A program made the position numbers and the translations under genes. From NCBI GenBank assembly GCA_963665295.1, contig OY762209.1:3456001-3520000 (forward strand): DNA of 64,000 nucleotides, written 5' to 3'. The notes beneath the pieces are model-generated. The model had not been told where the DNA came from. It ran no database searches and worked only from the letters and a program-made list of their open reading frames with translations. The stretch comes from Syntrophorhabdaceae bacterium. Lineage in GTDB: Bacteria > Desulfobacterota > Syntrophorhabdia > Syntrophorhabdales > Syntrophorhabdaceae. How positions within the stretch are numbered: the first letter of the stretch is position 1; the number at the start of each line of letters is the position of its first letter. Shown in pieces: positions 13,903-52,088 of this stretch.

Positions 13903-14134
13903 AGGGGGAGCGCTTTCGCAGGTGAGGGCCGGAATCGCCGGAAGGCCGTTTCAGGCCGTCAAGAGCCGGTCTTCCGACCCCTATTGACAAATCATGGGGG
14001 AATGGTAAAAGCTATTGTCGGCAGGAGGGTTTGTCCACTGGCGGACCGGTTTTGTCCGGAGGAAGAGGAGCCGGTTAGACGGGTTCGAAAGGGTAATGGC
14101 CTGTTGCTGCTCATGTAAAGAGAGGTGTGGTATT

Positions 14135-15013: not shown

Positions 15014-15025
15014 AACGGGTGGTAA

Positions 15026-16564
15026 TTGGATAACGAACAGTCAAAGGCCGTGAAGATGAGAATCTCATGGTCACGAATTTCCCAGATCGTCTTTCTCGTA
15101 GCATTCCTCATCCTTTTCGTCACCACGGAATACAGGGGAAAGGATGAGATATCCGTAGCCATGAACAGTTTTTTCAGGGCCGACCCTCTTGTCGCGATGA
15201 GTTATATACTCGCGGAAAAGACGGTGACATGGCTTCTTGTCCCCGGTGTCCTGATGATCGTTTTTTCGGCGGCCCTGGGAAGGTTTTTTTGTGGCTGGAT
15301 TTGTCCTCTCGGGACAACCCTGGACCTCATCACGAAGAGGATAAATAAAAGGGGTCCCATCAGATTCATCAAAGGGAGGTTCAAATACTGGCTGCTCCTG
15401 CCCCTTCTCTCGGCGGCGTTTTTTAACGTCAATCTGACGGGTATCCTCGATCCTATCGCCATACTTGTCAGGGCTCTGACCTTCTTCCTTTACCCCGTTT
15501 TCGGCTACACCGTGAGGTCGGGTTGGACGGGGCTTTACGCGGTGATAGGCGAGAGAAGGGACTACGCTGAACCGGTGTATGCCTTTTTCAAAGACTACAT
15601 TCTCCCTTTCCGTGAAACCTTCTATCCCCTTGCATTCATATCTTTCATGTTCTTTCTCCTTATCGTTTTTCTTGAGAGATATGAACGGAGAAACTGGTGC
15701 AGGAACCTCTGTCCCCTTGGGACGCTTCTTGGTCTCGTAGGGAGGTTTTCCCCTTTCAGGAGGCTGCCCGGAAGGCTTTGCTCCGATTGTCAGGGATGCA
15801 GGGACGTCTGCCCCACGGCGTTTGACCGGGAAGTCTTCCAGAAAGAGGATTGCATCCTTTGTATGGAGTGTGAACTGAAGTGCAGGTTTAAGCGAGTCGG
15901 TTTTTCGCTGAGATCCGTCAAGGCCCGTAGCGGAAAACCCCGGCAGCCCGTAATGGAAAGGCGGGTTCTTGTGGGTGGGCTTCTTTCGGGTTTTTTCCTC
16001 AGCCATGCTTTTTCGTTCAAGTCTCCTTATTCCCAGGAACGGATGCTCCGGCCGCCGGGAGTGGATGATGAGCCCGCATTTCTGAAAAAGTGTGTGAGGT
16101 GCGGGGAGTGCATGAAGGTCTGTCTTAAGAATGCCCTTTACCCGGACTACTTCAGGGCGGGTTTTTACGGGGTGTTCATGCCTGTTATGATCCCGAGGCT
16201 CGGGTATTGCGAATATAATTGCAATCTTTGCGGCCAGGTGTGCCCCACGGGCGCCATACCGAATCAGCCGCTGGAACAGAAGAAAAAGAGCGTTATAGGC
16301 CTTGCCGCGGTGGACAAGAACCACTGCCTCCCCTATGCGAAGAAGATCAACTGCATCGTGTGCGAAGAGCATTGCCCCATCCCCGAGAAGGCAATTCGCC
16401 TGGAAGCCATAGAAGAGCGGGGCTATGACGGGCGGACTGTCACCCTCAAGCGGCCCTACGTGGTGGATGAATTGTGCACCGGTTGCGGGATCTGTGAATA
16501 TGTGTGCCCTCTCGAAGGCAAGGCGGCGATCGAGGTTTACTCGAAGAAGAAAAGGAAACTGTAG
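15026..16564 (+). CDS. Membrane polyferredoxin (NapH/MauN-like N-terminus, NapG/MauM-like C-terminus)
   Basis: Several TM segments, GRFFCGWICPLG, WCRNLCPLG, LRPPG and multiple CxxCxxCxxxCP motifs. Confidence 0.85.
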   Translation: MDNEQSKAVKMRISWSRISQIVFLVAFLILFVTTEYRGKDEISVAMNSFFRADPLVAMSYILAEKTVTWLLVPGVLMIVFSAALGRFFCGWICPLGTTLDLITKRINKRGPIRFIKGRFKYWLLLPLLSAAFFNVNLTGILDPIAILVRALTFFLYPVFGYTVRSGWTGLYAVIGERRDYAEPVYAFFKDYILPFRETFYPLAFISFMFFLLIVFLERYERRNWCRNLCPLGTLLGLVGRFSPFRRLPGRLCSDCQGCRDVCPTAFDREVFQKEDCILCMECELKCRFKRVGFSLRSVKARSGKPRQPVMERRVLVGGLLSGFFLSHAFSFKSPYSQERMLRPPGVDDEPAFLKKCVRCGECMKVCLKNALYPDYFRAGFYGVFMPVMIPRLGYCEYNCNLCGQVCPTGAIPNQPLEQKKKSVIGLAAVDKNHCLPYAKKINCIVCEEHCPIPEKAIRLEAIEERGYDGRTVTLKRPYVVDELCTGCGICEYVCPLEGKAAIEVYSKKKRKL

Positions 16565-16648: not shown

Positions 16649-18580
16649 ATGGAAAAATATCCCCATATCTTTGCCCCCGGCCGAATCGGCACCCTCACCA
16701 CGAAGAACAGAGTCAAGTATGCGGCCACCGAAACTAATTTCCCCTTCAGGGACGGTTTTGTAAGCGACAGGGAAGTAGCGTACATGGAAGCCCAGGCAAG
16801 GGGAGGCGCGGGGATAGTGACGACCCAGGGCGCCTATCCCGACCCCAGGGGAGAAGGAAAAGGTTTCAGGGGTATGATGGGCATATACGATGACGTTTTT
16901 GTGCCGGGCCTTGCCCGGATCTCTGAAGTGATAAGGAAACATGGTGCCCTTTCATGTCTGCAGATCCTCCATTGCGGCAGGGAAGGGGGCGTGGAGCTCG
17001 ATTACAGCCTTATGGCTTCCGCCGTTCCGCAGAAGCTGTCTTATTTCAAGAAGCCGAGAGAGATTACTGCGGAGGAGATAAAGCAGTCCGTCAAGGACCA
17101 CGTGAAGGCCGCGAGGCGGGCAGTCGACGCGGGGTTTGATATGATAGAGATATCGGGCATTGTGGGTTATCTGATTTCTACCTTCATTTCCCGCTACAGC
17201 AACAAGAGAACTGATGAGTATGGGGGCGACATTCGGGATCGCTGCCGCGTCATGAAGGAGATCCTCGGGGGCATCAAATCCGAGGTAGGAATCACCTACC
17301 CGGTAGGCATACGGCTCTGCGGCCTCGAACTCCTTGACGACAGAGGAGGAAACACCTTTGAGGAGAGCCTTGAAAGCTTCCGGATAGCGGAAGAAGCAGG
17401 CGCGGATTACGTGAGTGTGACCATCGGATGGCATGAGTCTTCTCAGTCGGTGATTACACGGGATGTGCCCATGGGCCACTGGCTCTATGTGGCCGATGCG
17501 GTGAAGAAAGCCGTAGACATTCCCGTGATGATGGCATTCCGGCAGTTCTTGCCCGCCATACCCGAGAAGGCCCTTGCCGACAAGAACATAGACTTCTGGG
17601 AGGTGTGCCGGCCCATGATTGCGGACCCTGATCTTCCAAGAAAAGCGAAAGAGGGGAAAGAGGACGAGATCATCCCTTGCATTGCGTGCAACCTTTGTTT
17701 CTCACGGCTTTACTATCACCAGCCCATCATGTGTTCCGTGCGGCCGAGCCTGGGAAAGGAGGCCGACCCTGAGTGGGGCTATTATGGTTTCGCAAAGGCC
17801 GGGGAGGTGAAAAAGGTTATAGTAGTGGGTGGTGGTCCCGCGGGCCTTCAATGCGCATCGGTGGCCGCACAACGGGGACACAGGGTAATCCTCTTCGAAA
17901 AGGGGAACACGTTGGGAGGCGCGGTCCTCCTTGCGTCGAGGGTGGACGAAGGAGCGGCAGAGTTGCTCCGCCCTATCGCCATGCTCGACGGGGAGTGCAG
18001 GCGGAATAACGTGGACCTTCGTCTCGGGGTGGAATGTACCCCGGACATCATAGCAGCGGAAGGGCCGGACGTAGTGATAATGGCCACGGGCGCGGTGCTC
18101 CGGGAAACTCCTTCGCAGCCCGGAGTCACAGTCCTTACCCCGGAAGACGTGATGCTGAGGGACGTGAAGCCCCCCCGCAAGGTGGTTATTATCGGAGGTA
18201 AAGGTGTGGGACTTGGCGTCGCTGTTTTTCTCGTGAGGAACGGAGATTACGAGATGACGGTCATCGAGGAAGGTGCGAGGCTCGGGAGGGATGTGAACCC
18301 CTTCTACCTGTGGCAGTATGTGCGGCTCCTTAAGGGAAAGAAGGTCAACCTTACCGCGGGTGTGGGCGTCGTCGGGATAGAGGAAGGCGGCGTAAGAATC
18401 TCCGGGCCGACCGGCGAGAAACTGATCCCGTGCGAAGGGGTGATATTGGCCGATCAGGTCCCCTGGAAGGGGTGGGATGCTTCCTTCCAAGGGGAGATTC
18501 ACTACATCGGAGATGCGAAGAAACCGAGGCGAATAAACAATGCGATACATGACGGTTATCGTGTGGGGATGAATATCTGA
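16649..18580 (+). CDS. Old Yellow Enzyme family FMN/FAD/[4Fe-4S] oxidoreductase (2,4-dienoyl-CoA reductase-like architecture)
   Basis: TIM-barrel motifs (ARGGAG, NKRTDEYGG), CIACNLC-x11-C, VVGGGPAG, IGDA. Confidence 0.88.
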   Translation: MEKYPHIFAPGRIGTLTTKNRVKYAATETNFPFRDGFVSDREVAYMEAQARGGAGIVTTQGAYPDPRGEGKGFRGMMGIYDDVFVPGLARISEVIRKHGALSCLQILHCGREGGVELDYSLMASAVPQKLSYFKKPREITAEEIKQSVKDHVKAARRAVDAGFDMIEISGIVGYLISTFISRYSNKRTDEYGGDIRDRCRVMKEILGGIKSEVGITYPVGIRLCGLELLDDRGGNTFEESLESFRIAEEAGADYVSVTIGWHESSQSVITRDVPMGHWLYVADAVKKAVDIPVMMAFRQFLPAIPEKALADKNIDFWEVCRPMIADPDLPRKAKEGKEDEIIPCIACNLCFSRLYYHQPIMCSVRPSLGKEADPEWGYYGFAKAGEVKKVIVVGGGPAGLQCASVAAQRGHRVILFEKGNTLGGAVLLASRVDEGAAELLRPIAMLDGECRRNNVDLRLGVECTPDIIAAEGPDVVIMATGAVLRETPSQPGVTVLTPEDVMLRDVKPPRKVVIIGGKGVGLGVAVFLVRNGDYEMTVIEEGARLGRDVNPFYLWQYVRLLKGKKVNLTAGVGVVGIEEGGVRISGPTGEKLIPCEGVILADQVPWKGWDASFQGEIHYIGDAKKPRRINNAIHDGYRVGMNI

Positions 18581-18774
18581 TGATACCTATCGTAGATTTG
18601 GACGAGTGCACGGGATGCGCAAACTGCACGGAGGTCTGCCCTCCGGGAGCGCTATCAATGGAAGAGGGAAAAGTGCTTCTCACCGAGGACCTTTGCGAAG
18701 AATGCGGGTTCTGCGCGGCCGAGTGTCCTGTGGGGGCGATCACCGTCCCTTTCCCGTACTCTGCCGACAAATGA
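18580..18774 (+). CDS. 2[4Fe-4S] ferredoxin
   Basis: CTGCANCTEVCP and CEECGFCAAECP; TGATG overlap with the upstream gene. Confidence 0.92.
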   Translation: MIPIVDLDECTGCANCTEVCPPGALSMEEGKVLLTEDLCEECGFCAAECPVGAITVPFPYSADK

Positions 18775-18931
18775 CGTCAGGCAGGGAAGCGTTCCGGGCC
18801 ACCCGTGCCGAGAGACCGGGCGACGTATCGGCAGGGATGGAACTGCCTACGGGCGGTGTTATCGGGGAAACGCATAGCGGGAGAGACAAACGCGCCGCGT
18901 GGGCGGCGCCGAGGCTGCGAAGTGACTTCCG

Positions 18932-19390
18932 TTATATCTTTCTGCTGTTCTTGATGAGTAGCTTAAGATTTTCCAGGAGCGTGTGTTTTTCGTGCTCCGC
19001 AAAGCCCTTGAGCATCGAGTGCATGTAGTCGTCCCGTTCTTTCTCGATATAGGTAAGGGTTCTCTTGCCTTTGGCCGTGATCTCGAGAATCGTGACGCGC
19101 TCATCGGTAGGGTCCGATTTTCTCACGATGAAGCCGTTCTTCTCGAGCCGCCTTGCTATGCCGGTCATGTTAGCAACTGGTACAAGCATGATGCGGCTTA
19201 CATGGGTGATCCTGCTCTGCCCGTCCTTTGACGCGTCAAGAACCCTTAACATATTGTACTGAGGAAACGAAAGTCCATGTTTCCTGAAAATATTGGATAC
19301 AACCCTTTTGAATGTCTCGGCCGCTCTAACGAGGGCCATCAACACATTTTCATCGGCGCTCAAATCGCTCCTATAGCTAATTCCCATCAT
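18932..19390 (-). CDS. MarR family transcriptional regulator
   Basis: GLSFPQYNMLRVL, RRLEKNGFIVR, DERVTILEITAKG. Confidence 0.93.
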   Translation of the reverse strand: MMGISYRSDLSADENVLMALVRAAETFKRVVSNIFRKHGLSFPQYNMLRVLDASKDGQSRITHVSRIMLVPVANMTGIARRLEKNGFIVRKSDPTDERVTILEITAKGKRTLTYIEKERDDYMHSMLKGFAEHEKHTLLENLKLLIKNSRKI

Positions 19391-19749
19391 TTCACCTCAA
19401 CAGACCGTGGATTCAAAATCGAACGAATTTAAATTATACCAGCTTGTGGACCGATACTCCAGAAAATAAACGCATTGAAATTAAATATATTGATAGTAAA
19501 CATGTTGACTTTCTATATCTCCTTATGGTATTTGATTTTTATATGGAGACAGGAGCTTTTCCGACTCTCCTGACCGGGTCGTGTGACCGCGTAGTTCGCA
19601 GGATAAACGGCCACCTGAGGAGGGTAAAAGATGTGCCGGATATACTCTCCGAAGGGTCGGCGGTTTCAATCTCCGGTAAGAGGCAGCGGCAGTGCGGACG
19701 AAGTGTAAGGAGCATCAGCAGAAAAAACGGTTAAGAACAAGGAGGTACA

Positions 19750-21207
19750 ATGCAAATCAAGAATGAGCTTGCAAAGATTGTGGGCAAGGACTACGTAAGT
19801 GAAAGCATGAAGGATCGCGAGAAATACTCGCGGGATTACAGCCTCCTTCCTGCCGGACTTCCCGACGCCGTAGTGTGGCCGGGTAGCTCGGAAGAGGTAG
19901 GTAAGGTTGTGACGTGGGCTAACGAGAAGAACATACCTATAGTTCCGGTAAGTTCGAAAGTCCATTTCTACGGATGCAGCATACCGAAGCAGGGCGGCGT
20001 CGTTGTCGACCTTTCGAGGATGAACAAGATCTTTGAAATTGACACGGACAACCGTCTGGTAAGGTTTGAGGCCGGCGTAACGTGGGAACAGCTTACCACG
20101 GAACTGGCGAAGAAGGGTCACAGGGTCATTATGCCGTTACTGCCCCCGGGAGATCGCTCGGTACTGACCGACACCCTGGAGAGGGAGACACCGACAAACA
20201 TCGTGTACGACTACGGAGAGCCGATGCAGTCGGTTGAAGTTGTATGGCCGACCGGCGAGCTTTTCAGGTGCGGTTCCGCCAGCGTAAACGGTTTCCCTGA
20301 TTCAAAGTCAAGAGGCGCAAACCCATCAGGACCGGGCCTTGACTTCTACCGGTTTTTCCAGCTTGCCCAGGGTACCATGGGTATCGTCACATGGATGAGC
20401 TTGAAGATGGAGACAGTTCCCAAGATAGACAAGATATTCTTCGCACCTGTATATGATCTGGAATATGCTATGAATTTCCTGTACAGGATACTGCCGAGGA
20501 GAATCGGCCAGGAGTGTCTGTTGCTGAACAACACGGACCTCGCCGCCCTCGCCGCAGATTCAATGCCCGATGATTTCGACGAACTGCGGGCCAAATTGCC
20601 GCCTTGGACTCTTATTCTCACCATAAGCGGGCTCGTAAGAAGACCCGAAGAGAAGATCGCCTACGAAGAGAAGTTCCTTGCGGAAGTACTGAAAAACGAA
20701 TTCCCGAAGATGGGCCTTACGGACAACCTCCCTGGTTTCCCCGGGCTTGGCCGGAAACTCATGCCTATGTTGAGAGCCCCGTGGCCGTCTGACCTTCCGT
20801 ACTGGAAGAACCGTATAAAAGGTGGAGTACAGAATCTGTTCTTCATCACAAAGCCGAATCGCGCTTCTATGTTCATCGAGGTTATGGAACTCGTAGCAGC
20901 CAAGTACGACTATCCGTTCGGCGACATCGGAAGCCATATCCAGCCGATAGAGCACAACAGAGCCTGCGAGATCGAATTCAGCTTCTTCTACAATCCTGAT
21001 GATGCCGCTGAGAAAGAACTTGTGGCTGCGATGTACCGGGATGCCGCAACGGCACTGTTCAACGAAGGTGCGTTCTTTACGAGACCTTACGGAGAACTCG
21101 CCCCGATGATATATGACAAGGCCGCAGGATATCAGGCAGCCTTGAAACGGGTGAAAAATGTCCTCGATCCGAAGAACATTATGAATCCCGGAAATCTGTG
21201 CTTCTAA
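19750..21207 (+). CDS. FAD-linked oxidoreductase (VAO/PCMH/D-lactate dehydrogenase superfamily)
   Basis: PDAVVWPGS, VVVDLSRMNKI, GTMGIVT, LDPKNIMNPG; AAGGAGG RBS. Confidence 0.88.
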   Translation: MQIKNELAKIVGKDYVSESMKDREKYSRDYSLLPAGLPDAVVWPGSSEEVGKVVTWANEKNIPIVPVSSKVHFYGCSIPKQGGVVVDLSRMNKIFEIDTDNRLVRFEAGVTWEQLTTELAKKGHRVIMPLLPPGDRSVLTDTLERETPTNIVYDYGEPMQSVEVVWPTGELFRCGSASVNGFPDSKSRGANPSGPGLDFYRFFQLAQGTMGIVTWMSLKMETVPKIDKIFFAPVYDLEYAMNFLYRILPRRIGQECLLLNNTDLAALAADSMPDDFDELRAKLPPWTLILTISGLVRRPEEKIAYEEKFLAEVLKNEFPKMGLTDNLPGFPGLGRKLMPMLRAPWPSDLPYWKNRIKGGVQNLFFITKPNRASMFIEVMELVAAKYDYPFGDIGSHIQPIEHNRACEIEFSFFYNPDDAAEKELVAAMYRDAATALFNEGAFFTRPYGELAPMIYDKAAGYQAALKRVKNVLDPKNIMNPGNLCF

Positions 21208-21218
21208 GGAGGAAAAAC

Positions 21219-22535
21219 ATGCCAAATGATCGTTACGATACGCCAAAAACACCAGTTGCCCTGGATATAACAAAACTGGAAAATTTTAAGTATGATATGG
21301 ACCATTGCATTAAATGCAAGGGTTGCTATTGGGTTGAGCACAGCTACATGCCGGGCGTGAACTTCTCGGTAAGATGCCCCAGCAACTACTGGAACGATTT
21401 CGACTCTTACGGCGCCTTCGGTAAGATGAGGATAGGTCTTGGTATCATCGACAAGAAACTGGAGTGGACCGACAAGCTTCTGGAAATCATCTATGCCGAT
21501 CCGCTTTGCGGCGCTTGCGACGTAGGCTGCAAACGTAATCTGGACCTGGAAATAGGACTGACACTTGAGGCCCTGAGAGTCAAAGCGGTGCAGGAAGGGG
21601 CAGGCCCCATGCCGGCACACAAGAAGATTGCGAAGAATATAGACACGAAGCACAACCAGTTCGGCGCCCCCCACGAAAACAGAAAGAAATGGGTAACGAA
21701 GGACATCAAAGTGGCCGACAAGGCCGACACCCTGTATTTTGCGGGATGTTCTTCATCTTACAGAAACCCCGACATCGCGAAAGCGACAGCGAAGATCCTG
21801 AACGCCGCCGGGACGCCTTTCATGATGCTGAAAGACGAGTGGTGCTGCGGAAATACGGTTGTCTCGACGGGTATGATGGATGAAGCAAAGAAGATTGCGG
21901 AGCGGAACATTGCGGCGATCAAGGAGTCGGGAGCAAAGAGAGTCATCACGAGCTGCGCCGAGTGTTACAGGACGTTGAAAGTCGACTATCCGAAGCTTCT
22001 CGATATCGCAACGGCGGACCTCGGATTTGAGGTTATCCACCTTATCGAGTTTGCCGACGCTGCCATCAAAGACGGCTCGCTGAAGCTGACCCAGCCGGTG
22101 GACGTGCGGTTTGCGTACCAGGATTCATGTGGCGTGAGCAGACTTGCCGACCCGTGGACCCCGTGGAGCGGTACCCGTGGCTGGATGGGTTGCGTGGAGC
22201 CGGAACTGAAGAGGAGACGCGGCACAAAAGGACTTTACATGCAAGCCAGGGATATATTCAAGGCCATTCCGGGCGCCAAATTCGTTGAAATGCCGAGAAC
22301 GAGAGAGAACGCATTCTGTTGCGGAGCGGGAAGAGGCACAAAGGAAGCCTTCCCGGATCTCGCATCGGTATCCGCAAAACATCGGATCGAAGAGGTGAAG
22401 CATGTGAGTGCTGAGGCTCTCGTGGCTGCATGTCCGTGGTGCAAAAGCAATTTCTCCCAGGCAGTCAAAGAGAATGGCGACAACGTGAAAGTAATGGATA
22501 TTGCGGAACTTATCCTTGCCGCAGTTGAATCATAA
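21219..22535 (+). CDS. HdrD/GlpC-like Fe-S protein (ferredoxin domain plus two CCG domains)
   Basis: CIKCKGC...CP, LCGACDVGC, YFAGC, WCCG, SCAEC, YQDSC, FCCGAG, ACPWC. ATG 21219 follows AAGGAGG. Confidence 0.88.
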   Translation: MPNDRYDTPKTPVALDITKLENFKYDMDHCIKCKGCYWVEHSYMPGVNFSVRCPSNYWNDFDSYGAFGKMRIGLGIIDKKLEWTDKLLEIIYADPLCGACDVGCKRNLDLEIGLTLEALRVKAVQEGAGPMPAHKKIAKNIDTKHNQFGAPHENRKKWVTKDIKVADKADTLYFAGCSSSYRNPDIAKATAKILNAAGTPFMMLKDEWCCGNTVVSTGMMDEAKKIAERNIAAIKESGAKRVITSCAECYRTLKVDYPKLLDIATADLGFEVIHLIEFADAAIKDGSLKLTQPVDVRFAYQDSCGVSRLADPWTPWSGTRGWMGCVEPELKRRRGTKGLYMQARDIFKAIPGAKFVEMPRTRENAFCCGAGRGTKEAFPDLASVSAKHRIEEVKHVSAEALVAACPWCKSNFSQAVKENGDNVKVMDIAELILAAVES

Positions 22536-22546
22536 GGAGGTTGGCT

Positions 22547-24157
22547 ATGAGTATAGTGAAAGCTGCATATAATGCAATAGAGTCGATAGTTGGTCCCAAG
22601 TTTATCTCCGACGATCCGGCCATCTGCGAAGGCTACCGGTCGGGACCTGGTGGATACGAGAGCGGCCTCGGATACGAGCGTGTAATGACGACAATACCGC
22701 ACGCCGTAGTCATGCCGAAAACCACCGAAGATGTTCAGAAGATCGTAAAAATATGTAACCGTTATAAAGTACCTTACGTTCCCTACGCAACAGGGTTCTA
22801 TGGCCCCCGTTCACACTGCCATGTGGAGAACGAGCTTCTTATCGACATGAAGAGGATGAACTCCTTTGAAATCGACGAGAAACATTTTTGCATCAACGTA
22901 GGCCCGGGCGTCATCTATTCCCCGATCCAGCAGGAGTGCCTTAACAAAGGCGCGTATGTGGTTATCGGCGGCGGCGGCGCGCAGGCATCGGCTATCGCAA
23001 ACCTGATCGGCGACGGCTGGTCACCTCTGAGTCACAGGATTGGTCTGCCTCACAGACGTATCCTTGGTACCGAGTTGGTCCTTCCCGACGGCGAACTGGT
23101 GAAGATGGGTTCCCTTGCGAACGGCGACGACCCGTTCTGGGGTGACGGACCCGGTCCGGACCTGAGAGGTCTTCTCCGTGGTTTCACCGGTCTTCGCGGT
23201 TGCCTCGGCATCGTAACAAAGATGGCAATCAAGACCCTTCCTTTCCAGCCTGAGCCCCTTGTTCCCACAGGCATTTCACCCAACACGGGACTTGCCCTTC
23301 CCACGAACCGCGTAAAATGGATCAACTATCAGGTGCCGAGCAAGGCAGCCCAGATAAAGGCCATGTTCGAAGTAGGAAAGGCTGAGGTCGCCGGCGCAAT
23401 AACAAAGGTGCCCCTGTTCTGGCGTGCAATTAACAAGGCGGAGAGCAAAGAGGAGTTCTGGCAGTTGTGGGGTAAGGAAAACGAAGAGACAATCAAAAAC
23501 TTCTTCATCGTCCGTGTGCTGCTGATCGGCTACACCTCCGAAGAGCAGATGCAGTACGACGAGAACGTATTGAACGACATCATGGCCGAGTGCGGCGCGG
23601 TGCCCAGAGCAACGAGGCCTCTCGACGAATCTTGGATCAAGAATGCGGACTCGGCAGGTATGTGGCTCATGTGCGGTTCCTACGTCTCGGTTGATTACAT
23701 CATCGAGTCGCTGACTCAGGCCACCGTGCACGGAGAAAGCTACGCCGACACCAAGAAGAAATATACGCCACCCCTTATGCCCGATTACGGCGATCCGGGT
23801 TGGTTCCAGAGTTTTGAGTGCGGTCACCAGGGTTACTCCGAATTCCTCGTTTATTGGGACCAGGATGAGGACACTACCGGTGTCGATCATTTCTACGTAG
23901 AGACATCAAAGATGAACATCAAAGAGCGTTTCTATACCTCGCTCTTAGGCCCTCACCAGCCGATGTACCTTACAGGGCCGATGTACGGACCGAACTACCA
24001 TGAGTGGATGCTGAAGATCAAAGATGAATTTGATCCTCTCTGGGTATGTCACCCGCCGGTACCTCTGGCACACGATGAGTTCGTGGAACGTGCGGAGTGG
24101 ATGAGACCGCTGAAGGATTGGGAAAGCCCGAAAGAACTGCCCATGCCCAAGTGGTAA
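22547..24157 (+). CDS. Second FAD-linked oxidoreductase (VAO/PCMH superfamily)
   Basis: PHAVVMPKTTEDVQKIVKICN, LIDMKRMN, ELVLPDGELV, GPGPDLRGL, GCLGIVTKMA. Confidence 0.85.
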   Translation: MSIVKAAYNAIESIVGPKFISDDPAICEGYRSGPGGYESGLGYERVMTTIPHAVVMPKTTEDVQKIVKICNRYKVPYVPYATGFYGPRSHCHVENELLIDMKRMNSFEIDEKHFCINVGPGVIYSPIQQECLNKGAYVVIGGGGAQASAIANLIGDGWSPLSHRIGLPHRRILGTELVLPDGELVKMGSLANGDDPFWGDGPGPDLRGLLRGFTGLRGCLGIVTKMAIKTLPFQPEPLVPTGISPNTGLALPTNRVKWINYQVPSKAAQIKAMFEVGKAEVAGAITKVPLFWRAINKAESKEEFWQLWGKENEETIKNFFIVRVLLIGYTSEEQMQYDENVLNDIMAECGAVPRATRPLDESWIKNADSAGMWLMCGSYVSVDYIIESLTQATVHGESYADTKKKYTPPLMPDYGDPGWFQSFECGHQGYSEFLVYWDQDEDTTGVDHFYVETSKMNIKERFYTSLLGPHQPMYLTGPMYGPNYHEWMLKIKDEFDPLWVCHPPVPLAHDEFVERAEWMRPLKDWESPKELPMPKW

Positions 24158-24209
24158 GTATGAGTTGAGGGCGACCTCAGGATAAGCAAAAGAGTATCGG
24201 AAATACAGA

Positions 24210-24245
24210 GACTGGGCAGGCAATCAGCAGGATGCCTGCCCAGTC
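24210..24245. other. Perfect 13-bp inverted repeat after the FAD/CCG genes (terminator or mRNA stabiliser)
   Basis: GACTGGGCAGGCA-10 nt-TGCCTGCCCAGTC; no strong U-tract. Confidence 0.55.
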
Positions 24246-24322
24246 ATTCTGAATAGGGCAGGATAAAAGCAGGATGTTTGTAAATGTGAACATAAAGTGG
24301 CCCATAAGGGCTACGAAATAAC

Positions 24323-24352
24323 TTGATATGAATACATAAGTTGTTGTATACT
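24323..24352 (+). promoter_or_regulatory. Putative sigma70 promoter of the molybdoenzyme operon
   Basis: TTGATA-18 nt-TATACT in AT-rich intergenic DNA. Confidence 0.4.
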
Positions 24353-24473
24353 CGAAAAGGCCAATCGTTTGGCCCGGTGATATAGCTACGGAAATAGCGG
24401 CCCGCATGAAGCCGATTTTATAGATTAGATGTAAATTTTGTGGTTAAAGAAAGATACCAAAGGAGGTGAAAAA

Positions 24474-24734
24474 ATGGCAAAAGTTTCAAATGCCTGCCCG
24501 TTCTCAAGCAGGTCTTGCAGGGAGTGCGCCATTTACATCGGCAGGCATTCGCAGATTTGCATAGCGGCGAGGTACAAGAACGGAGTCAAACCTAAGCCGA
24601 CATACGGATGTACCCATCTGAAGTTCGAGTTTCCCACGGAACTTGTGGAGAGCGACGTTCGGCTTAAAGATCTGGAAGAACGAGAAGAAAATCTTCAGGA
24701 AGCGAAAATAGTCTGGAAAAGTGAAACAAGGTGA
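24474..24734 (+). CDS. Small Cys/His-rich hypothetical protein (86 aa)
   Basis: AAGGAGGT RBS; C-x6-C-x2-C-x6-H-x3-C motif. Confidence 0.7.
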   Translation: MAKVSNACPFSSRSCRECAIYIGRHSQICIAARYKNGVKPKPTYGCTHLKFEFPTELVESDVRLKDLEEREENLQEAKIVWKSETR

Positions 24735-24842
24735 GTTACGGGTTGGAGTCTTAAGGACATTCCGGATTGTCCGAAACGACTACTGGAAGCGGCTAATTAA
24801 AGTTGGAGACAGCGAAGAAAGTATTATGGAAAGGAGATAAGC

Positions 24843-25718
24843 ATGATACATGATTTTACGTACCTTAAACCCGGCACGGTCCAGGAAGCCCTGGCCATGC
24901 TCTCCGATCACGTGGATGAGTGTAAGATTATCTGCGGCGGTCAGTCACTACTTATCGTCATGCGGCAGGGCCTCATCACGGTAGACTACCTGGTCGACAT
25001 CAAGGGGCTCAAAGAGTTGAGCTACATCAAGTATGACGACAAAGAAGGCCTCAAGATCGGCGCCACCACGATTCACAGAATGATCGAAAAATCGGCGCTC
25101 CTCAAAGAGAAGTATCCTATTCTTTCGAAAATGGAAGAAAGACTTGCGTCAACGGCTGTCCGTAACTGGGGAACCATCGGCGGCAACCTGGCACACGCCG
25201 ACGCAGCGGGCGACCCTGCACCGGTACTCATCAGTCTCAACGCCAAGATTAAAGTAGGCTCGAAGAAGGGTGAGAGAGTAATGGCACTCGAAGAGTTCTA
25301 CACCGACCTGTTTGAAACAGCCATGGAGCACGACGAGATGGTCCTCGAGGTTCAGGTTCCTCCTCTGCCTCCCAAGACCGCGTGTGCATACAAGAAGTTC
25401 AACCTCCTTCAGAACGACATGGGCGTAGTCGGCGTTGCAGCGAAGATAACGGTAGACGCGAGCGGCACCATCACGGATGCAGCGATCGTCCTTGGCAACT
25501 CCGGTGTAACCCCCATCCGGGCAAAGAGCGCGGAGCAGGCCTTGATCGGCAAGAAGCCGGATGAGGCAGCTTTTGCGGCAGCGGGCGAGGGCGCCGGCAG
25601 CGATGCGGACCCTGTGTCCGATATCCACGCCTCCGATGAATTCAGAAGACACCTGGTGAAAGTCCTGACAAAGCGTATGGCAAGGCAGGCCTGGGAACAG
25701 GCTGTTAAATTAGGGTGA
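24843..25718 (+). CDS. Xanthine dehydrogenase family FAD-binding subunit (CoxM-type)
   Basis: GGQSL, RNWGTIGGNLAHADAAGD, DIHASDEFRRHL. Confidence 0.92.
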   Translation: MIHDFTYLKPGTVQEALAMLSDHVDECKIICGGQSLLIVMRQGLITVDYLVDIKGLKELSYIKYDDKEGLKIGATTIHRMIEKSALLKEKYPILSKMEERLASTAVRNWGTIGGNLAHADAAGDPAPVLISLNAKIKVGSKKGERVMALEEFYTDLFETAMEHDEMVLEVQVPPLPPKTACAYKKFNLLQNDMGVVGVAAKITVDASGTITDAAIVLGNSGVTPIRAKSAEQALIGKKPDEAAFAAAGEGAGSDADPVSDIHASDEFRRHLVKVLTKRMARQAWEQAVKLG

Positions 25719-25734
25719 GGGAGGCTTATACGAT

Positions 25735-26220
25735 ATGGAAAAGAAAGAGATAAAACTTATAGTCAATAAAGTGGAGTACGAGCTTTACATAAACCCCAAA
25801 ACCCTTCTTGTCGAGGCCATCAGGGACCACATCGGCCTGACGGGAACGAAAAGGGGTTGTGAGACGGTATCGTGCGGCGCATGCACGGTGCTGGTAGACG
25901 GCGCTGCCGTGAAGGGATGTTCTATCCTTGCCATTCAGTGCCAGGGACTGCCTATCACCACGTCCGAAGGCCTCGAGACCGACGGCAAGCTGGCTCCCAT
26001 CCAGAAAGCCTTCCTCGACGAAGGTTCCTACCAGTGCGGCTTCTGTACATCGGGGATGCTTATGGCTACCTCGGGACTTCTGATCGAAAGCCCGAACCCC
26101 ACCGTTGAAGAGATTAAGGATTCTATAGAAGGGAATATCTGCCGCTGCACAGGTTACAACAGTATCGTTCGGGCTGTCGAGCGAGTGGCAAAAGGTATGT
26201 ACAAGGAGGAGTCACTATGA
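25735..26220 (+). CDS. Xanthine dehydrogenase family 2x[2Fe-2S] subunit
   Basis: GTKRGCETVSCGACTV, QCGFC, NICRCTGY. Confidence 0.95.
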   Translation: MEKKEIKLIVNKVEYELYINPKTLLVEAIRDHIGLTGTKRGCETVSCGACTVLVDGAAVKGCSILAIQCQGLPITTSEGLETDGKLAPIQKAFLDEGSYQCGFCTSGMLMATSGLLIESPNPTVEEIKDSIEGNICRCTGYNSIVRAVERVAKGMYKEESL

Positions 26221-28526
26221 CGACAACGAGTCTAGCGAAAGAAAAATTACATGTTATCAATACCCATGTGCACAATATCGATGGTATTGCGAAGGTAACA
26301 GGCCGCGCAACCTACAGTTTCGACGTGAAACTGCCCGGGATGCTGTATGGCAGAATCCTCCGCAGCCCCCATCCGCACGCGAGAATAATAAACATAGATG
26401 CGAGCAAAGCCCTGGCCATGAATGGCGTAAAAGCCGTAGTGACAGGAAAAGACACCCTTGGCGTAAAACAGGGTATCTGGAGACGTTTTAACGAGCTTTG
26501 CGACGAGCAGATCCTCCCCGTTGAGAAGGTCCGCTATATCGGCGAGCCGGTTGCAGCAGTCGCCGCAGTGACGGATGAGATCGCAGAGAAGGCCCTCGAC
26601 CTGATCGAAGTCGAGTACGAGGTTCTGGAAGGCGTATACGAGCCGTATGAGGCCATGAAGAAAGGCGCCCCCGAGCTTCACGAGGGCGTAGAAAGAAACA
26701 TCAACGTCACCCGTCACATTGAGTGGGGCGATGTGGAAGAAGGTTTTGAGAAAGCGGACTATATCAGGGAAGACCACTTCTTCTGCGGCGGCCAGGCACA
26801 TATGTGCATGGAGACCAGAGCGGCAGTAGCGAGCTACACCCCGGAAAAGAAGCTGACCATCTGGCATTCAAACCAGTCTGCGTATTATATGCAGGGCCTT
26901 ATGGCCGGCGTACTTGGTATGAGAGAAGGCGACATCCGCGTGATCGCACAGTACGTGGGCGGTGGGTTCGGTGGTAAGTTCGAGCTCGACGGCGCCATCT
27001 TCTGCTCGTCGATTCTCAGCATGAAGACCTTCAGGCCCGTAAAAGTAGTATTCACAAGGGAAGAGGACTTCATCGCATCAAAGCGCCGCACCCCGATGCA
27101 CTATTGGGTAAGAACAGGCGTATCGAAAGACGGTAAGTTCCTTGCTCGCGAGTCGAGGGTTGTCAGCAACGGCGGCGCCTATACAGGCATGGGCGCAACA
27201 GCGCTCTACCTTACGGGTTTCTTCCACTCTTTCCCCTACAGATGGGGTGGATACCGTTATGACGGCTACAGGGTTTATACAAACACCCTTCCGTCGACTT
27301 CAATGCGTGGATTCGGCGCTCCCCAGGCGCTCTTCTGCTCCGAGCAGCAGCTCGAGTGGATCGCCAAGGACCTCAAACTCGATCCTATCGAGATGAGGCG
27401 GCAGAACGGCCATTATGCCGGTTACGAAGTCCCGGGCCAGGCTTTTATCGCAAGCTGCGGTCTGGATGAAGCATTCACGATCATGCAGGAATGGATGGAC
27501 AAGAAGAAAGCAGGCGGACTTCCCCCGAACAGAGGCATCGGTTTCTCGGCTGCCGGTTTTATGTCGGGTGGTATCTTCAACTGGTTCGATACACCTTATT
27601 CATTCTCTTCAGCAGTAGTCACCATCAACCAGGATGCAACCGTAGAGCTTCACATCGGCGCAACTGAGATCGGCCAGGGCTCCAACACTACAATGGCCAT
27701 TATCGCTGCCGAGACTCTCGGAGTAAAGGTTGAGGACATAAAAGTACATTCAGGCGATACAGACCATTGCCCGGCTGACCTCGGCGCATGGGGTTCAAGA
27801 CAGACCCTTATGACCGGTAACGCCACGAAGAGGGCTTGTGAAGACGCCAAAGCACAGCTTCTCGAATTCGCCCTTGCGAAAATGGGTCTTAACATCGTAT
27901 ACGACCTTGACATCGCAGATCGCTGGGTACACATCGTAGCTCGTCCGGAAAGGGGTATGCCCTTCGAAGAACTGGTGAAGATCGCCCTCCGCGGTAAAGA
28001 CGGACAGAGAATCATCGGTAGAGGTTTCTATACTCCTCACAGAAAGGGCATGATCTCCCCCGCATACAGCTATATGCTGCAGGGCGTGGAGATTGACGTT
28101 GATCCCGAGACAGGCAAAATCGAACTCCTTGACAGCCTTACCGCACACGACTGCGGTCAGCCTATCAACCACCTGGGACTTATTGGTCAGCTCGAAGGCG
28201 CATTTTCGATGGCAGCCGGTTATGGCTACCTCGAGTACATGCCTTACGAAGACGGCAAGCTCATGAACCCGAACCTGGTGGACTACAAGATGATCAGGGC
28301 GACAGAAATGCCTCCCACCCCGATCGCCGAGATCGATACCTACGAGCCGGAAGGACCGTACGGTGCGAAGGAAGCAGGCGAAGGTCTGACGAACCCGACG
28401 GCAGCAGCCATCGGCAACGCCATTTTCAACGCCTTCGGCATTCAGATGAAAGAGTGCCCGATCAGGCCGCATATGATCGTTGAGGCGTTAAAAGAAAAGG
28501 AAGCAAAAGAGAAGGCAGGCAAGTAA
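26217..28526 (+). CDS. Xanthine dehydrogenase family molybdopterin subunit, resembling 4-hydroxybenzoyl-CoA reductase alpha (HcrA)
   Basis: ILRSPHPHA, GGGFGGK, MRGFG, EIGQGSNT, GAWGSR, GPYGAKEAGEG. Confidence 0.9.
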   Translation: MTTTSLAKEKLHVINTHVHNIDGIAKVTGRATYSFDVKLPGMLYGRILRSPHPHARIINIDASKALAMNGVKAVVTGKDTLGVKQGIWRRFNELCDEQILPVEKVRYIGEPVAAVAAVTDEIAEKALDLIEVEYEVLEGVYEPYEAMKKGAPELHEGVERNINVTRHIEWGDVEEGFEKADYIREDHFFCGGQAHMCMETRAAVASYTPEKKLTIWHSNQSAYYMQGLMAGVLGMREGDIRVIAQYVGGGFGGKFELDGAIFCSSILSMKTFRPVKVVFTREEDFIASKRRTPMHYWVRTGVSKDGKFLARESRVVSNGGAYTGMGATALYLTGFFHSFPYRWGGYRYDGYRVYTNTLPSTSMRGFGAPQALFCSEQQLEWIAKDLKLDPIEMRRQNGHYAGYEVPGQAFIASCGLDEAFTIMQEWMDKKKAGGLPPNRGIGFSAAGFMSGGIFNWFDTPYSFSSAVVTINQDATVELHIGATEIGQGSNTTMAIIAAETLGVKVEDIKVHSGDTDHCPADLGAWGSRQTLMTGNATKRACEDAKAQLLEFALAKMGLNIVYDLDIADRWVHIVARPERGMPFEELVKIALRGKDGQRIIGRGFYTPHRKGMISPAYSYMLQGVEIDVDPETGKIELLDSLTAHDCGQPINHLGLIGQLEGAFSMAAGYGYLEYMPYEDGKLMNPNLVDYKMIRATEMPPTPIAEIDTYEPEGPYGAKEAGEGLTNPTAAAIGNAIFNAFGIQMKECPIRPHMIVEALKEKEAKEKAGK

Positions 28527-28557
28527 GAAATTCAGCCAATTGTGAAGGAGGTAATCC

Positions 28558-28791
28558 ATGGCAGTAGAATTGAAATTTAAATGCCCCGTGTGCGGAAAAC
28601 AGTATGAAGTGAGCCTGCAGGCGGCTCGGCACATATTTGGAACCGGTGACAAGAAACACCGTGACTGGGTTGATTCACAGGGAGTAAACTTTAAGGATCT
28701 GCTTGTTGAGCAGGCCTTGAATCCCGGAAACGCGAGTTATCAGACCGTAGCCGAGCTTGTTGAAAAGGCGCAGGCTGGTCTTAAGAAGTAG
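28558..28791 (+). CDS. Small protein with C2H2-like motif (77 aa)
   Basis: AAGGAGGT RBS; C-x2-C-x12-H-x8-H; lies inside the operon. Confidence 0.75.
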   Translation: MAVELKFKCPVCGKQYEVSLQAARHIFGTGDKKHRDWVDSQGVNFKDLLVEQALNPGNASYQTVAELVEKAQAGLKK

Positions 28792-28815
28792 GATTCTTAA
28801 ATTTAGGAGGCGTCC

Positions 28816-29268
28816 ATGATTATTGAAGGTGGTTTTACGGTCAAGGCACCGATTCAGAAGCTGTTTGACTTCCTGATGAAGCCGGAGACCGTCATGATGT
28901 GCATACCAGGCACAGAGTCGGTGAAGATTATCGACGACACGAGCTTTGAGAGCGTGCTGAAACAGCGCGTGGGCATTATCTCGGTAAGGCTTAAGTTCGT
29001 AACGAAGACGGTAAAGGTCGAGGCACCGACCCACGCCGAGTTCGAAGGCGAAGGCGAAGACATGACGAAGCTCGGTCATTTCAAGCAGAAAACCGTGTTG
29101 AACCTTAAGGAAGTTGCACCGGGCGAAGTTGAGTTCACCTATGCGGTAGACGTTGCAATCGTAGGGAAACTTGCTATGTTCGGCGACAGGGTTATGAAAC
29201 AGAAAGCAAAAGACACGGAAAAGGCATTTACGAAGAATCTCCAGGAGAAGCTGGCGGCTTTAGGTTAG
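28816..29268 (+). CDS. CoxG/SRPBCC domain protein
   Basis: MIIEGGFTVKAP...CIPG...VGKLAMFGDRVM; typical position after molybdo-hydroxylase genes. Confidence 0.85.
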   Translation: MIIEGGFTVKAPIQKLFDFLMKPETVMMCIPGTESVKIIDDTSFESVLKQRVGIISVRLKFVTKTVKVEAPTHAEFEGEGEDMTKLGHFKQKTVLNLKEVAPGEVEFTYAVDVAIVGKLAMFGDRVMKQKAKDTEKAFTKNLQEKLAALG

Positions 29269-29296
29269 TAAGCCAGAATTCCGGATCAAGTTGCAA

Positions 29297-29332
29297 GGAG
29301 AGGGTCTCTCGAAAGAGAGACCCTCTTTGTTT
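29297..29332 (+). terminator. Rho-independent terminator
   Basis: AGAGGGTCTCTC-GAAA-GAGAGACCCTCT followed by TTGTTT. Confidence 0.85.
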
Positions 29333-29355: not shown

Positions 29356-29648
29356 AAGTGTCCCCCAGCACGCACCGCGTGCGAGAAGGGGAGGCTCTAC
29401 CGGCTTCTGCCGGTGGAGGGGGCGACGCAAGCCCCAATAACAGTGCAAGCATAAGTCGAAGTGTCCCCCCAGCACGCACCGCGTGCGAGAAGGGGAGGCT
29501 CTACCGGCTTCTGCCGGTGGAGGGGGCGACGCAAGCCCCAATAACAGTGCAAGCATAAGTCGAAGTGTCCCCCCAGCACGCACCGCGTGCGAGAAGGGGA
29601 GGCTCTACCGGCTTCTGCCGGTGGAGGGGGCGACGCAAGCCCCAATAA
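29356..29648. repeat. Tandem repeat: three copies of an 85-86 nt palindromic core with identical 18-nt linkers (period 103-104 bp)
   Basis: Cores at 29356-29440, 29459-29544 and 29563-29648; linker CAGTGCAAGCATAAGTCG occurs twice; cores differ only by one C in a C-run. Confidence 0.97.
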
Positions 29649-29786
29649 TTGGTTGAAAAGACCCAACCAGTTGTAAGATAATAGGTACTGCGCGCCGGTT
29701 AACCTTGAAACGAGGTATGTGCAGGAGAGCGGGAGTTACCTGCGGGGCAGTATCCGGAGGTTGGATGTGGGGGCAGAGGAGGGGAT

Positions 29787-31547
29787 ATGGCGTATGATGC
29801 GACGAAGATGGCGGACTGGGAGATCTCTGAAATTGCAGAAGGCAACATGAAATCCCTTTGGCAGCTTCAGGAGGAGCTTGGCCTGGAAAAAGACGAAGTC
29901 ATCCCCTACGGAAGGATAGGAAGGGTAAGTTTTCCCAGGATAATGGAAAGGTTTCGTGACCGGCCGGACGGGAAGTATATCGAGGTGACGGCCATTACAC
30001 CTACTCCGCTGGGGGAGGGTAAGACGACTACTTCGATAGGGCTTATCGAAGGTCTTGGTAAGAGAGGAAGGATTGCGGGAGGAGCTATCCGCCAGCCGTC
30101 GGGTGGACCGACCATGAATGTGAAGGGGAGCGCCGCAGGCGGGGGGAACGCACAGGCGATCCCGCTCACTGAGTTTTCACTCGGGCTTACAGGGGACATC
30201 AACAATATTATGAATGCCCATAACCTCGCTATGGTTGCCCTCACGTCGCGGATGCAGCACGAAAGAAACTATAATGATGACGAGCTTTCGCGCAGAAGGC
30301 TGCGCCGGCTCAATATCGATCCCAGCAACGTTCCCATGGGGTGGGTGGTCGATTTTTGCGCACAGGCCCTGAGAAGCATCGTGATAGGTCTTGGCGGGCG
30401 CATGAACGGGTTTACCATGCAGTCCCATTTCGATATAGCGGTCAGTTCGGAGGTAATGGCGATCCTTTCTATCGCGAGAGACCTGAAGGACCTGAGAGAA
30501 AAGATCGGCAAAATCACCGTTGCCTACGACACAAAGGGAAACGCCATCACCGCGGAGGATCTGGAGGTTGCCGGTGCGATGACGGCTTTCATGAGGGAAA
30601 GCATCAACCCCACCCTCCTTCAGACGATAGAGGGTCAGCCGTTGCTGGTTCATGCAGGTCCTTTCGCGAATATTGCCATCGGGCAGTCATCGATCATCGC
30701 AGACCGGGTTGGTCTCAAACTCTTCGACTATCATGTGACGGAGAGCGGATTCGCTGCTGATATCGGTTTTGAGAAGTTCTGGAACGTGAAATGCCGGATC
30801 AGTGGCCTCAAGCCGAATGTATCGGTCATTACCGCCACCATCCGCGCCTTGAAGATGCACGGAGGCGGGCCGAGAGTGACACCGGGGTTCCCTCTTTCCT
30901 CTGAGTACAGGGAAGAGAACCTCCCGCTTCTTGAAAAGGGCATTTCGAACCTTGTCCATCATATCCGCACCGTGAAATTGTCCGGGGCGCACCCGGTGGT
31001 CTGCGTCAACAGTTTCTCCACGGACACAAGAGACGAGGTTGCTCTGGTCAGGCGGTACGCCGAGGCGGAGGGGGCGCGGGTTGCAGTTTCGGAACATTGG
31101 CTGAGAGGAGGAGAAGGGGGATTGGAGCTTGCCGACGCGGTTATCGATGCGTGTGAGGAGGAATCCGACTTCCGCTTCCTGTACCCCCTGGAGATGCCCT
31201 TGAAGGAGAGGGTGGAACTGATCGCGAAAACCATTTATGGCGCCGATGGCGTCTTGTGGATTCCCGAAGCGGAGGAAAAGGTCGAGAGGTTGCAGGCGGA
31301 TCCGGAAAAGAGAGATTACTTTACCATGATGGTGAAAACCCATCTGAGTCTGACCCACGACCCGGAATTGAAAGGCGTGCCGAAGGGATGGAGGTTGCCT
31401 GTGAGGGACATCCTTGTATTCACGGGGGCGAAATTTCTGTGCCCTGTTACGGGTGCTATCAGCCTGATGCCCGGCACTGGCTCGGACCCCGCATTTAGGA
31501 GAATAGATGTGGATACGGAGACGGGTGGAGTTACGGGACTGTTTTAG
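29787..31547 (+). CDS. fhs: Formate--tetrahydrofolate ligase
   Basis: [51 protein letters not shown]. Confidence 0.97.
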
Positions 31548-31650
31548 CCTCCGGGGTTGGTTAAGCTGCAAACCCGCGTGGTTTTTCGGTATGTTCATTT
31601 GTATGATTAACCCGGATATGTCCCGAAAGGGCAAAAGAAAGGAGCGATGA

Positions 31651-50523: not shown

Positions 50524-52088
<1,565 letters not shown>

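Follow-up and report, generated by a model that had tools for sequence, protein, structure and literature searches.

A conserved pairing of a flavin/Fe-S trio with a molybdoenzyme cassette in Syntrophorhabdaceae, and its relation to a proposed benzene-activation flavoprotein

Introduction

What do two enzyme systems of known architecture do side by side in a strict anaerobe, and do they act on a common substrate? This question is raised by nine co-oriented genes of a Syntrophorhabdaceae bacterium, which lie in a 64,000-nucleotide stretch of its genome (GenBank assembly GCA_963665295.1, contig OY762209.1, positions 3,456,001 to 3,520,000), called the window here. The window is G000:C1:3456001-3520000 of its own 5.5-Mb, single-contig genome (G000). 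The genes form module 1, in which two FAD proteins enclose an Fe-S protein with CCG domains (FAD1, CCG and FAD2; the trio), and module 2, a molybdenum (Mo) enzyme cassette (orf1, the medium, small and large subunits, orf2 and CoxG). We found that the locus brings together two enzyme architectures, each of them known, in a conserved and uncharacterised pairing, which recurs in three phyla with linkage far above chance. Judged from its sequences, the trio is a distinct sister clade of the flavoprotein proposed for anaerobic benzene activation, which is itself of unproven function.

The first anaerobic attack on benzene is a long-open question, and the candidates reported in 2026 are known from slow enrichment cultures and have no characterised relative. 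The sister clade described here is widespread, with members in 41 of 61 relatives and under five phylum labels, and has cultured carriers; its reaction would reveal what the flavoprotein family does, and its recurrent partners narrow the candidate substrates of the trio. In addition, the Mo cassette is nearly universal (56 of 61 genomes) in this order of aromatic-degrading syntrophs.

Results

Relation of the trio to benzene-associated flavoproteins

The trio consists of FAD1 (19750..21207, + strand; 485 amino acids (aa); PF01565 and PF02913), a GlcF/HdrD-like Fe-S protein (21219..22535, +; 438 aa; PF02754 twice) and FAD2 (22547..24157, +; 536 aa), and both flavoproteins have the VAO/PCMH fold. 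In this order, they are homologues of the ORM2a 'Magic' proteins #26, #25 and #24 (Toth et al. 2026, PMC13101534) and of BzS1_12970, BzS1_12980 and BzS1_12990 (Musat et al. 2026, PMC13416013), which were proposed for anaerobic benzene activation in these two papers. Nine Magic-type loci were fetched by a motif scan, and one of them (L150) closely resembles ORM2a #24-26, according to a by-eye match to the first 400 residues in Table S14. The FAD-CCG-FAD gene order is identical in the two groups, and the identities are 43-44% for FAD1 (7 full-length proteins), 40-43% for CCG and 37-39% for FAD2. Thus, the window has the syntenic trio, but with 37-44% identity and a separate clade it falls outside the core group, for which Toth Table 3 and Musat section 3.5.2 give a threshold of at least 60% identity. 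In the FAD2 tree (109 rows), the window clade and the Magic clade were each supported at 100 and joined with four other representatives at 99, and three other representatives were closer to the Magic clade than the window clade is. Both trees used here were built by FastTree with SH-like support and no clade test, and the FAD2 tree omitted 28 of the 98 full-length representatives. The window clade is already in print in the form of BLAST hits, since close FAD1 relatives (HEY3277892.1, OPY79294.1 and four more; six of the ten accessions looked up) stand in the top-100 list of Musat Table S4 at 43-45%.

The two clades also differ at specific positions. In the Fe-S subunit, both CCG domains are intact, and the two ferredoxin-type motifs have an Asp in place of one Cys. 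Counting residues from base 21216, the Asp (D95) was found in 55 of 62 members of the window's clade, and C368, C369, C406 and C409 were kept in 62/62. In the Magic-type proteins, in contrast, C368, C369 and C409 were kept in 0/7 and C406 in 3/7; the second CCG centre is therefore intact in the window's clade and lost in the Magic type, and the degenerate Fe-S motifs of the Magic-type Hdr-like subunit are not shared by the window's clade. FAD2 differs from the Magic type by 115 fixed differences and lacks its N- and C-terminal extensions (536 vs about 580 aa). None of the nine Magic-type loci contained a gene of the xanthine dehydrogenase (XDH) family.

The architecture of the trio is likewise that of the glycolate dehydrogenase GlcDEF of E. 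coli and of D-lactate dehydrogenases, with two VAO-fold flavoproteins and one Fe-S/CCG protein; neither this nor the sisterhood to the 2026 candidate had been seen in the earlier note on this DNA, which was made from the sequence alone. The FAD2 model (pLDDT 88) had D-lactate dehydrogenase and VAO/PCMH structures as its top fold matches, and the best profile matches of the FAD2 family were p-cresol methylhydroxylase (156 bits), 4-ethylphenol oxidase (152 bits) and vanillyl-alcohol dehydrogenase (133 bits), followed by D-lactate dehydrogenase (119-122 bits). From these matches and the predicted structure, FAD2 appears to have a VAO-family fold equally near D-lactate dehydrogenases and 4-phenol oxidases. 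However, its likeness to both groups has limits. The GlcD and GlcF scores were 77 and 69 bits against a cut-off of 568, and the EHG motif, a mark of 2-hydroxyacid dehydrogenases, was absent from the last 90 residues of all FAD1 (0/56) and FAD2 (0/63) sequences. Identity to the 4-phenol subgroup was 15-19%, and the partner of the window's flavoproteins is a CCG protein rather than cytochrome c. The C-terminal Tyr-Arg pair, which binds phenolate in VAO/PCMH 4-phenol oxidases, aligned to Ser-Leu in FAD2 in a weak profile alignment, and FAD1 kept Arg only. An action of the trio on phenolics in the manner of PCMH-type flavoproteins, as considered earlier, is not supported, because the pair is not kept in FAD2, the more conserved flavin subunit.

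Conservation also points to the catalytic subunit. At least 90% conservation was found at 306 of 536 positions in FAD2 (64 sequences) and at 195 of 485 positions in FAD1 (56 sequences), and the CCG gene stood immediately 5' of FAD2 in all 64 loci with enough sequence. Because it is the most conserved subunit of the trio, FAD2 is likely the catalytic subunit that holds the substrate site; Toth et al. predict the same for #24, its counterpart (PMC13101534). No clear transmembrane helix was found in any subunit. FAD2 orthologues (at least 68% identity) occurred in 41 of the 61 genomes of the order that make up our relative set, and a 42nd genome gave matches of 30-35% only. Orthologues were also found in records labelled Thermodesulfobacteriota, Bacillota, Acidobacteriota, Chloroflexota and Bacteroidota, with identities of 68-95% across the clade. 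Among named organisms, the trio occurs in Desulfosporosinus, namely D. burensis, with a FAD1 69% identical, and Desulfosporosinus sp. I2. A further Dehalococcoidia trio clade (L211-L215, in genomes G269, G411, G204, G076 and G399) is 42-49% identical to the window, and downstream of its trio stand genes of acyl-CoA dehydrogenase-like, amidohydrolase and CoA-transferase-like type.

Linkage of the two modules

The second module lies 316 bp downstream of FAD2. This gap contains a perfect 13-bp hairpin without a T-run (24210..24245, no strand assigned) and a sigma70-like promoter (24323..24352, +; 10/12 match), although the latter is weak evidence alone, as 16 such sites were found against 11.7 expected. 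G000 also has a second copy of the six-gene cassette at 3260345-3265135, 215 kb off, 70-92% identical and without the trio. Because of this gap and the second copy, the nine genes are better described as two modules than as one simple unit.

Even so, the modules are often neighbours, and the earlier proposal that the FAD-CCG-FAD and Mo genes would be linked in relatives was supported. Both modules were present in 39 of the 41 trio-bearing relatives and lay within 10 kb of each other in 13 of these 39, from 8 genera; the linked genomes were 12 of the 22 in family f1 (f1 and f3 are subgroups of the relative set) and G039, and five f1 contigs end too early for a call. Same-strand adjacency in the same order was kept in 7 genera. 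The chance that a cassette present once in a genome of 2-5 Mb would lie within 10 kb of the trio is estimated at about 1%, with the reservation that related genomes are not independent. Linkage also extends across phyla. Among 351 genomes of the class of G061 (Dehalococcoidia by record label), three had an orthologous trio (G061, G306 and G381). In G061 and G306, all nine genes make up one compact operon, in which CoxG has moved forward and FAD2 and orf1 overlap or are spaced by 80 bp; G381 has the trio and orf1 only. Since the G061 FAD2 nests among Syntrophorhabdaceae sequences in the tree, it is possible that this operon arrived by transfer or mis-binning; G306 is a second case. In G062, the cassette and the trio are on different contigs and orf1 stays with the cassette. 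The same Mo clade (99 support) adjoins the trio in three Desulfatiglans loci (L098-L100) and lies near it in Acidobacteriota genome G064. In 74 trio loci, the window's Mo clade was found in 18 and any XDH large subunit in 27.

The molybdoenzyme and its accessory genes

The cassette was present in 56 of the 61 genomes (55 in one search, plus G011) in a nearly invariant order. It encodes a medium FAD subunit (24843..25718, +; 291 aa), a small subunit that carries a pair of [2Fe-2S] clusters (25735..26220, +) and a large subunit (26217..28526, +; 769 aa) with both MoCoBD domains (MoCoBD1/2), a GG(I/V)FNW signature and the C-terminal catalytic-type GAKEAGE motif, and thus has all xanthine oxidase (XO)-family marks. 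The closest solved large subunit is that of the 4-hydroxybenzoyl-CoA reductase HcrABC from Thauera aromatica (PDB 1rm6; E 7.6e-125), which shares the three-subunit XDH-family core, and HcrA is also the best NCBIfam match. The HcrA likeness claimed in the earlier note holds as a best match, but not as orthology. The scores were 662 vs 994.55 bits for the large subunit (TIGR03194) and 117 vs 404.55 bits for the medium subunit (TIGR03195), with all three subunits under the cut-off. The medium subunit lacks the [4Fe-4S] insert of HcrB (model positions 116-153 unmatched), and 48 of 52 homologous open reading frames (ORFs) have 286-291 aa. The loop reads RGFG in all 55 clade members shown, compared with RGHG in HcrA, and as RGFGAPQ it resembles nicotinate and xanthine dehydrogenases. 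The large subunits form a clade separate from HcrA-type sequences with 99 support (FastTree), and all seven genomes with an over-cut-off HcrA also carry the window's Mo clade. These sequence criteria set the Mo enzyme apart from HcrA orthologues and make a dehydroxylase role less likely. A lack of the insert is shared with UcdCFO, a urolithin dehydroxylase that uses NADH (PMC11760930). As a side observation, an HcrA-sister clade scoring 873-919 bits, under the cut-off (L229, L230 and 13 more matches), is common in f1, mostly in genomes without phenylphosphate carboxylase.

Compared with HcrABC, the cassette adds orf1, orf2 and CoxG. The two orphans noted earlier, one with Cys/His and one C2H2-like, are indeed conserved genes with invariant Cys/His sets. 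The product of orf1 (24474..24734, +; 86 aa; C-P-x5-C-x2-C-x6-H-x3-C) is likely a metal-binding accessory protein; C8, C15, C18, H25 and C29 were invariant in 51/51 sequences, no Pfam match was obtained, and the predicted model has low confidence (pLDDT 56). In nearly all loci, orf1 is the first gene of the Mo cassette. A third, lone copy of orf1, 84% identical and without Mo genes, is at G000:C1:1123651-1123911 (L003), about 4 kb from MqnE/MqnC-like genes. The zinc-finger-like accessory protein of orf2 (28558..28791, +; 77 aa; C-x2-C-x12-H-x8-H) has invariant C9, C12, H25 and H34 and 15 invariant residues in 40 sequences; its DUF5810 and zf-C2H2 matches were weak and under the cut-off, and it also stands 3' of Mo paralogues of 55% identity that lack orf1 and CoxG. 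Look-alike orf1/orf2 clusters occur in Chloroflexota, Acidobacteriota and Aminicenantota. A complex prediction of the Mo large subunit with orf1 and orf2 scored 0.00 and gave no answer, and it carries no weight as evidence.

CoxG (28816..29268, +; 150 aa; SRPBCC fold; PF06240) is likely a quinone or hydrophobic-ligand carrier and is homologous to the CoxG of 8uds (E 1.5e-6). It has no hydrophobic helix (maximum 19-residue hydropathy 1.28) and hence no membrane anchor, and 44 of 49 homologues have 149-153 aa. In the Mo-containing CO dehydrogenase (Mo-CODH) of Mycobacterium smegmatis, which likewise combines XO-family S/M/L genes with CoxG, CoxG binds menaquinone and docks on CoxML, and models of such docking were made for further XO-family enzymes as well (bioRxiv 10.1101/2024.01.09.574806). 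The window differs in that its large subunit is far under the CODH cut-offs, its CoxG is anchorless and its host is a strict anaerobe. By analogy, CoxG points to quinone coupling rather than direct soluble electron exchange. With orf1, orf2 and a CoxG that has no anchor, this XO-family enzyme may be wired in a manner not described so far.

Regulation of the modules

A gene for a MarR-family regulator (18932..19390, -; Pfam MarR/MarR_2) diverges from the nine genes, whose families were as described in the earlier note according to Pfam and NCBIfam. AGGAG-type ribosome-binding sites precede all nine genes, and an intrinsic terminator (29299..29332, +), a perfect hairpin with a 12-bp stem, a 4-nt loop and a T-run, closes the set, as had also been reported, although a simple terminator scan did not list it. 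Of 40 relative loci, 15 have a MarR orthologue (64-91%) that diverges from the trio, and all 15 belong to f1. Tandem boxes of 16-bp period with the core TATTGA (19468..19510, +) lie over a conserved TTGAC -35 element of module 1 and are the likely MarR operator; the box could be anchored in 22 of the 23 intergenic regions between marR and FAD1, where it covered the trio -35. An extended -10-like element (19433..19441, -), read from the sequence, belongs to the likely marR promoter, and its motif aligned in most intergenic regions compared. The leader past the module 1 promoter was not conserved. A matrix made from the boxes reached at least 22 in 16 of 17 f1 loci and in 0 of 20 other loci, which lack marR; it was trained on overlapping genomes, so that this contrast is partly circular.

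The matrix gave seven hits in G000, two of them at the window locus. One hit, at 3439347, precedes an operon of TRAP-DctPQM and acyl-CoA ligase genes, and another precedes a three-gene module 62% identical to one found 3' of FAD2 in relatives. This module, which encodes an AAA_5 ATPase, a repeat-rich 475-aa protein and a 630-aa protein whose end looks vWA-like by eye, stood 3' of FAD2 in 11 of 74 loci (e.g. L038, L039, L041, L042, L047 and L072) and is at G000:C1:1694238-1697712 with its own MarR-type box; it is possibly a maturation chaperone. The remaining three hits, at 3278503-3279175 and 3446359-3447000, precede 147-aa and 181-aa genes with no NCBIfam match.

Module 2 appears to have a different operator. 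An 18-bp palindrome scored at least 10 in 46 of 51 regions upstream of module 2 (shuffled mean 0.8) and is degenerate in the window (24275..24292, no strand assigned; score 7.9) and its closest relatives. In G000 the palindrome also occurs where an IclR gene starts, which suggests IclR control of module 2. Control of the trio by this palindrome was rejected; it was found upstream of the trio in 3 of 37 loci, compared with 16 of 201 background tiles. Thus, the earlier idea of one MarR-controlled nine-gene unit keeps its divergent MarR and is otherwise doubtful, given the separate promoter of module 2 and the separate operator that most relatives have for it.

Metabolic neighbours

Genes for CoA ligase or transferase, acyl-CoA dehydrogenase, enoyl-CoA hydratase (ECH)/3-hydroxyacyl-CoA dehydrogenase (3HCDH) or thiolase were found in 34 of 74 trio loci, and 14 of 41 Mo cassette loci had a DctP gene as a flanking gene. 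In the window (29787-32526) and at L044, L047, L069 and L210, the trio has Fhs/FolD or corrinoid methyltransferase genes (URO-D, pterin-binding, RACo) as neighbours, hinting at methoxylated substrates; in the wider set, they were found in just 3 of 74 loci. An OYE and ferredoxin pair, which had been counted as part of the system, is tail-to-tail with marR and has to be left out: beside the trio, OYE was found in 1 and ferredoxin in 0 of 40 relative loci, and neither was present in any of 74 further loci.

Discussion

From the gene content, homology, clade membership, synteny and conserved motifs described above, we infer a substrate, a direction of reaction and a quinone link. In the reading that we prefer, and to which we give about an even chance, the modules would oxidise an aromatic or heteroaromatic acid, imported and activated with CoA, in two steps, and the electrons would go to menaquinone rather than directly between the modules. 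The TRAP transporter and the acyl-CoA ligase under the same predicted MarR box would import and activate the acid, and MarR would sense the acid or its CoA ester. FAD2 may oxidise the substrate by hydride transfer, and the electrons would pass through the Fe-S clusters and CCG centres to the membrane quinone, as in GlcDEF, which reduces the quinone pool (PMC13101534 section 12). The Mo enzyme would add water-derived oxygen to a ring carbon or an aldehyde, its FAD would pass electrons to CoxG-bound menaquinone, and beta-oxidation enzymes would complete the side chain. A CoA-activated acid is supported by the CoA enzymes in 34/74 loci and by the TRAP genes near boxes and cassettes, and an oxidative Mo enzyme by its RGFGAPQ loop, which matches nicotinate and xanthine dehydrogenases and not the RGHG of HcrA. 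The menaquinone link is supported by CoxG, by the GlcDEF analogy, by the detection of the BzS1 trio in a membrane-enriched as well as a soluble fraction (PMC13416013, text to Figs S13-S14) and by MqnE- and MqnC-like genes in G000, whose scores are just under the cut-off.

Several points weigh against this reading. One loop residue is thin evidence of direction, and the quinone link has to do without a CoxG anchor or a clear transmembrane helix in any subunit. The predicted operators give no sign of co-regulation: the boxes differ, no enrichment of the palindrome was seen upstream of the trio, and regulation of the two modules is by this measure mostly separate. Linkage was counted in related genomes, the cassette was adjacent to the trio in 0 of 16 f3 genomes (two contigs end early), and 17 of the 56 cassette genomes lack the trio. 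Bacillota trio loci have other Mo clades or none. A second Mo clade with an RGHG loop (G000:2199029) adjoins the trio in five loci, and 30 of its 31 carrier genomes also have the trio; the association of the trio is thus with XDH-family enzymes, though not exclusively with the window's clade. As a separate observation, loci of the second Mo clade (G000:C1:2197588-2201341, L222, and L231-L246) carry genes for a 508-aa acyl-CoA dehydrogenase, a CoA ligase and a ThiS-like protein, sometimes with ETF genes.

We consider it rather unlikely that the Mo enzyme is a non-canonical reductase of 4-hydroxybenzoyl-CoA, or of another hydroxy- or amino-aroyl-CoA, for which the trio would make the substrate or supply electrons, a view near that of the earlier note. 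HcrA is the closest structure and best family match, and G000 has a phenylphosphate carboxylase and no over-cut-off HcrA. Moreover, 20 of 21 genomes with PpcA and without canonical HcrA carry the window's Mo clade, the missing HcrB insert is compatible with dehydroxylation, as in UcdCFO (PMC11760930), and in G013 the HcrA that passes the cut-off has a medium subunit of 295 aa next to it. However, this co-occurrence says little, because the Mo clade is in 56 of 61 genomes and PpcA in 27. The coexistence with HcrA in 7/7 genomes, the RGFG loop and separate clade, and the presence in G000 of seven paralogues scoring 592-719 bits likewise argue against it. The second Mo clade was also tried as a better phenol-pathway reductase and rejected, since it was found in 13 of the 21 genomes, against 20 of 21 for the window's clade. 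It is also unlikely, in our judgement, that the two modules are independent enzymes of a broad aromatic-acid metabolism that share catabolic islands and have neither a substrate nor an electron path in common. Separate promoters and operators would fit such a picture, as would the second cassette of G000, the genomes with a cassette alone, the unlinked modules in f3 and the other Mo clades beside the trio. Same-strand adjacency in one order in 7 genera is hard to reconcile with it, and so are the tight FAD2-orf1 junction with a moved CoxG in two Dehalococcoidia, the finding that orf1 accompanies only the trio in G381 and only the cassette in G062, and the recurrence of the same Mo clade near the trio in four lineages.

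A more far-reaching proposal, which we regard as quite improbable, is that the trio joins an activated arene (phenol, a methoxy- or hetero-arene) to an enoyl-CoA, after which beta-oxidation and the Mo enzyme yield benzoyl-CoA. The sisterhood to the Magic clade and the shared gene order speak for it, together with the CoA ligase, class III CoA transferase, 3HCDH and ECH neighbours, as at Magic-type loci, and the C3 or glutaconyl-CoA co-substrate proposed in both 2026 papers (PMC13101534, PMC13416013). The lack of the EHG motif and of a full PCMH Tyr-Arg pair in both flavin subunits is also in line with it. However, the mechanism put forward for Magic still lacks proof, other functions are expected by Musat et al. 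for homologues of 23-42% identity (PMC13416013), and the intact second CCG ligands and the 115 fixed differences in FAD2 suggest net electron export. The trio is also not complementary to phenol carboxylation, being present in 23 of 27 PpcA-positive and 18 of 34 PpcA-negative genomes. In its boldest form, which is a long shot, the trio would be the widespread ancestral form of the benzene-activating flavoenzyme and would couple arene and enoyl-CoA without ATP or oxygen; beta-oxidation would shorten the aryl-propanoyl-CoA, the Mo enzyme would finish, and the anchorless CoxG would carry menaquinone between the complexes. If true, this would be a new aromatic entry route, and benzene chemistry would be opened to study in cultured Desulfosporosinus.

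The earlier view that the combination is not a characterised pathway agrees with our search, in which no description was found; the literature covered left out most subscription papers, and Figures 5, 6 and S16-S19 of PMC13416013 may show some of the neighbourhoods. Dvar_33700-33740 were not found in one supplement of PMC11887813.

Other features of the window

The ORFs at 19444-19734 and 29358-29558 were rejected as genes, as they have no family match and overlie a promoter and a repeat. The repeat, at 29356-29673 directly after the terminator, consists of three tandem 104-bp copies (100%, 100% and 81%), each with an imperfect palindrome, and has no Rfam match. An Rfam scan of the window gave rRNA and tRNA only and no riboswitch; a complete rRNA operon with two tRNAs is at 50524-55599. 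Upstream of OYE, at 14015-16564, lie genes for a DUF362 protein and a NapH/NapG-like polyferredoxin, which among the loci seen are common only to G001.

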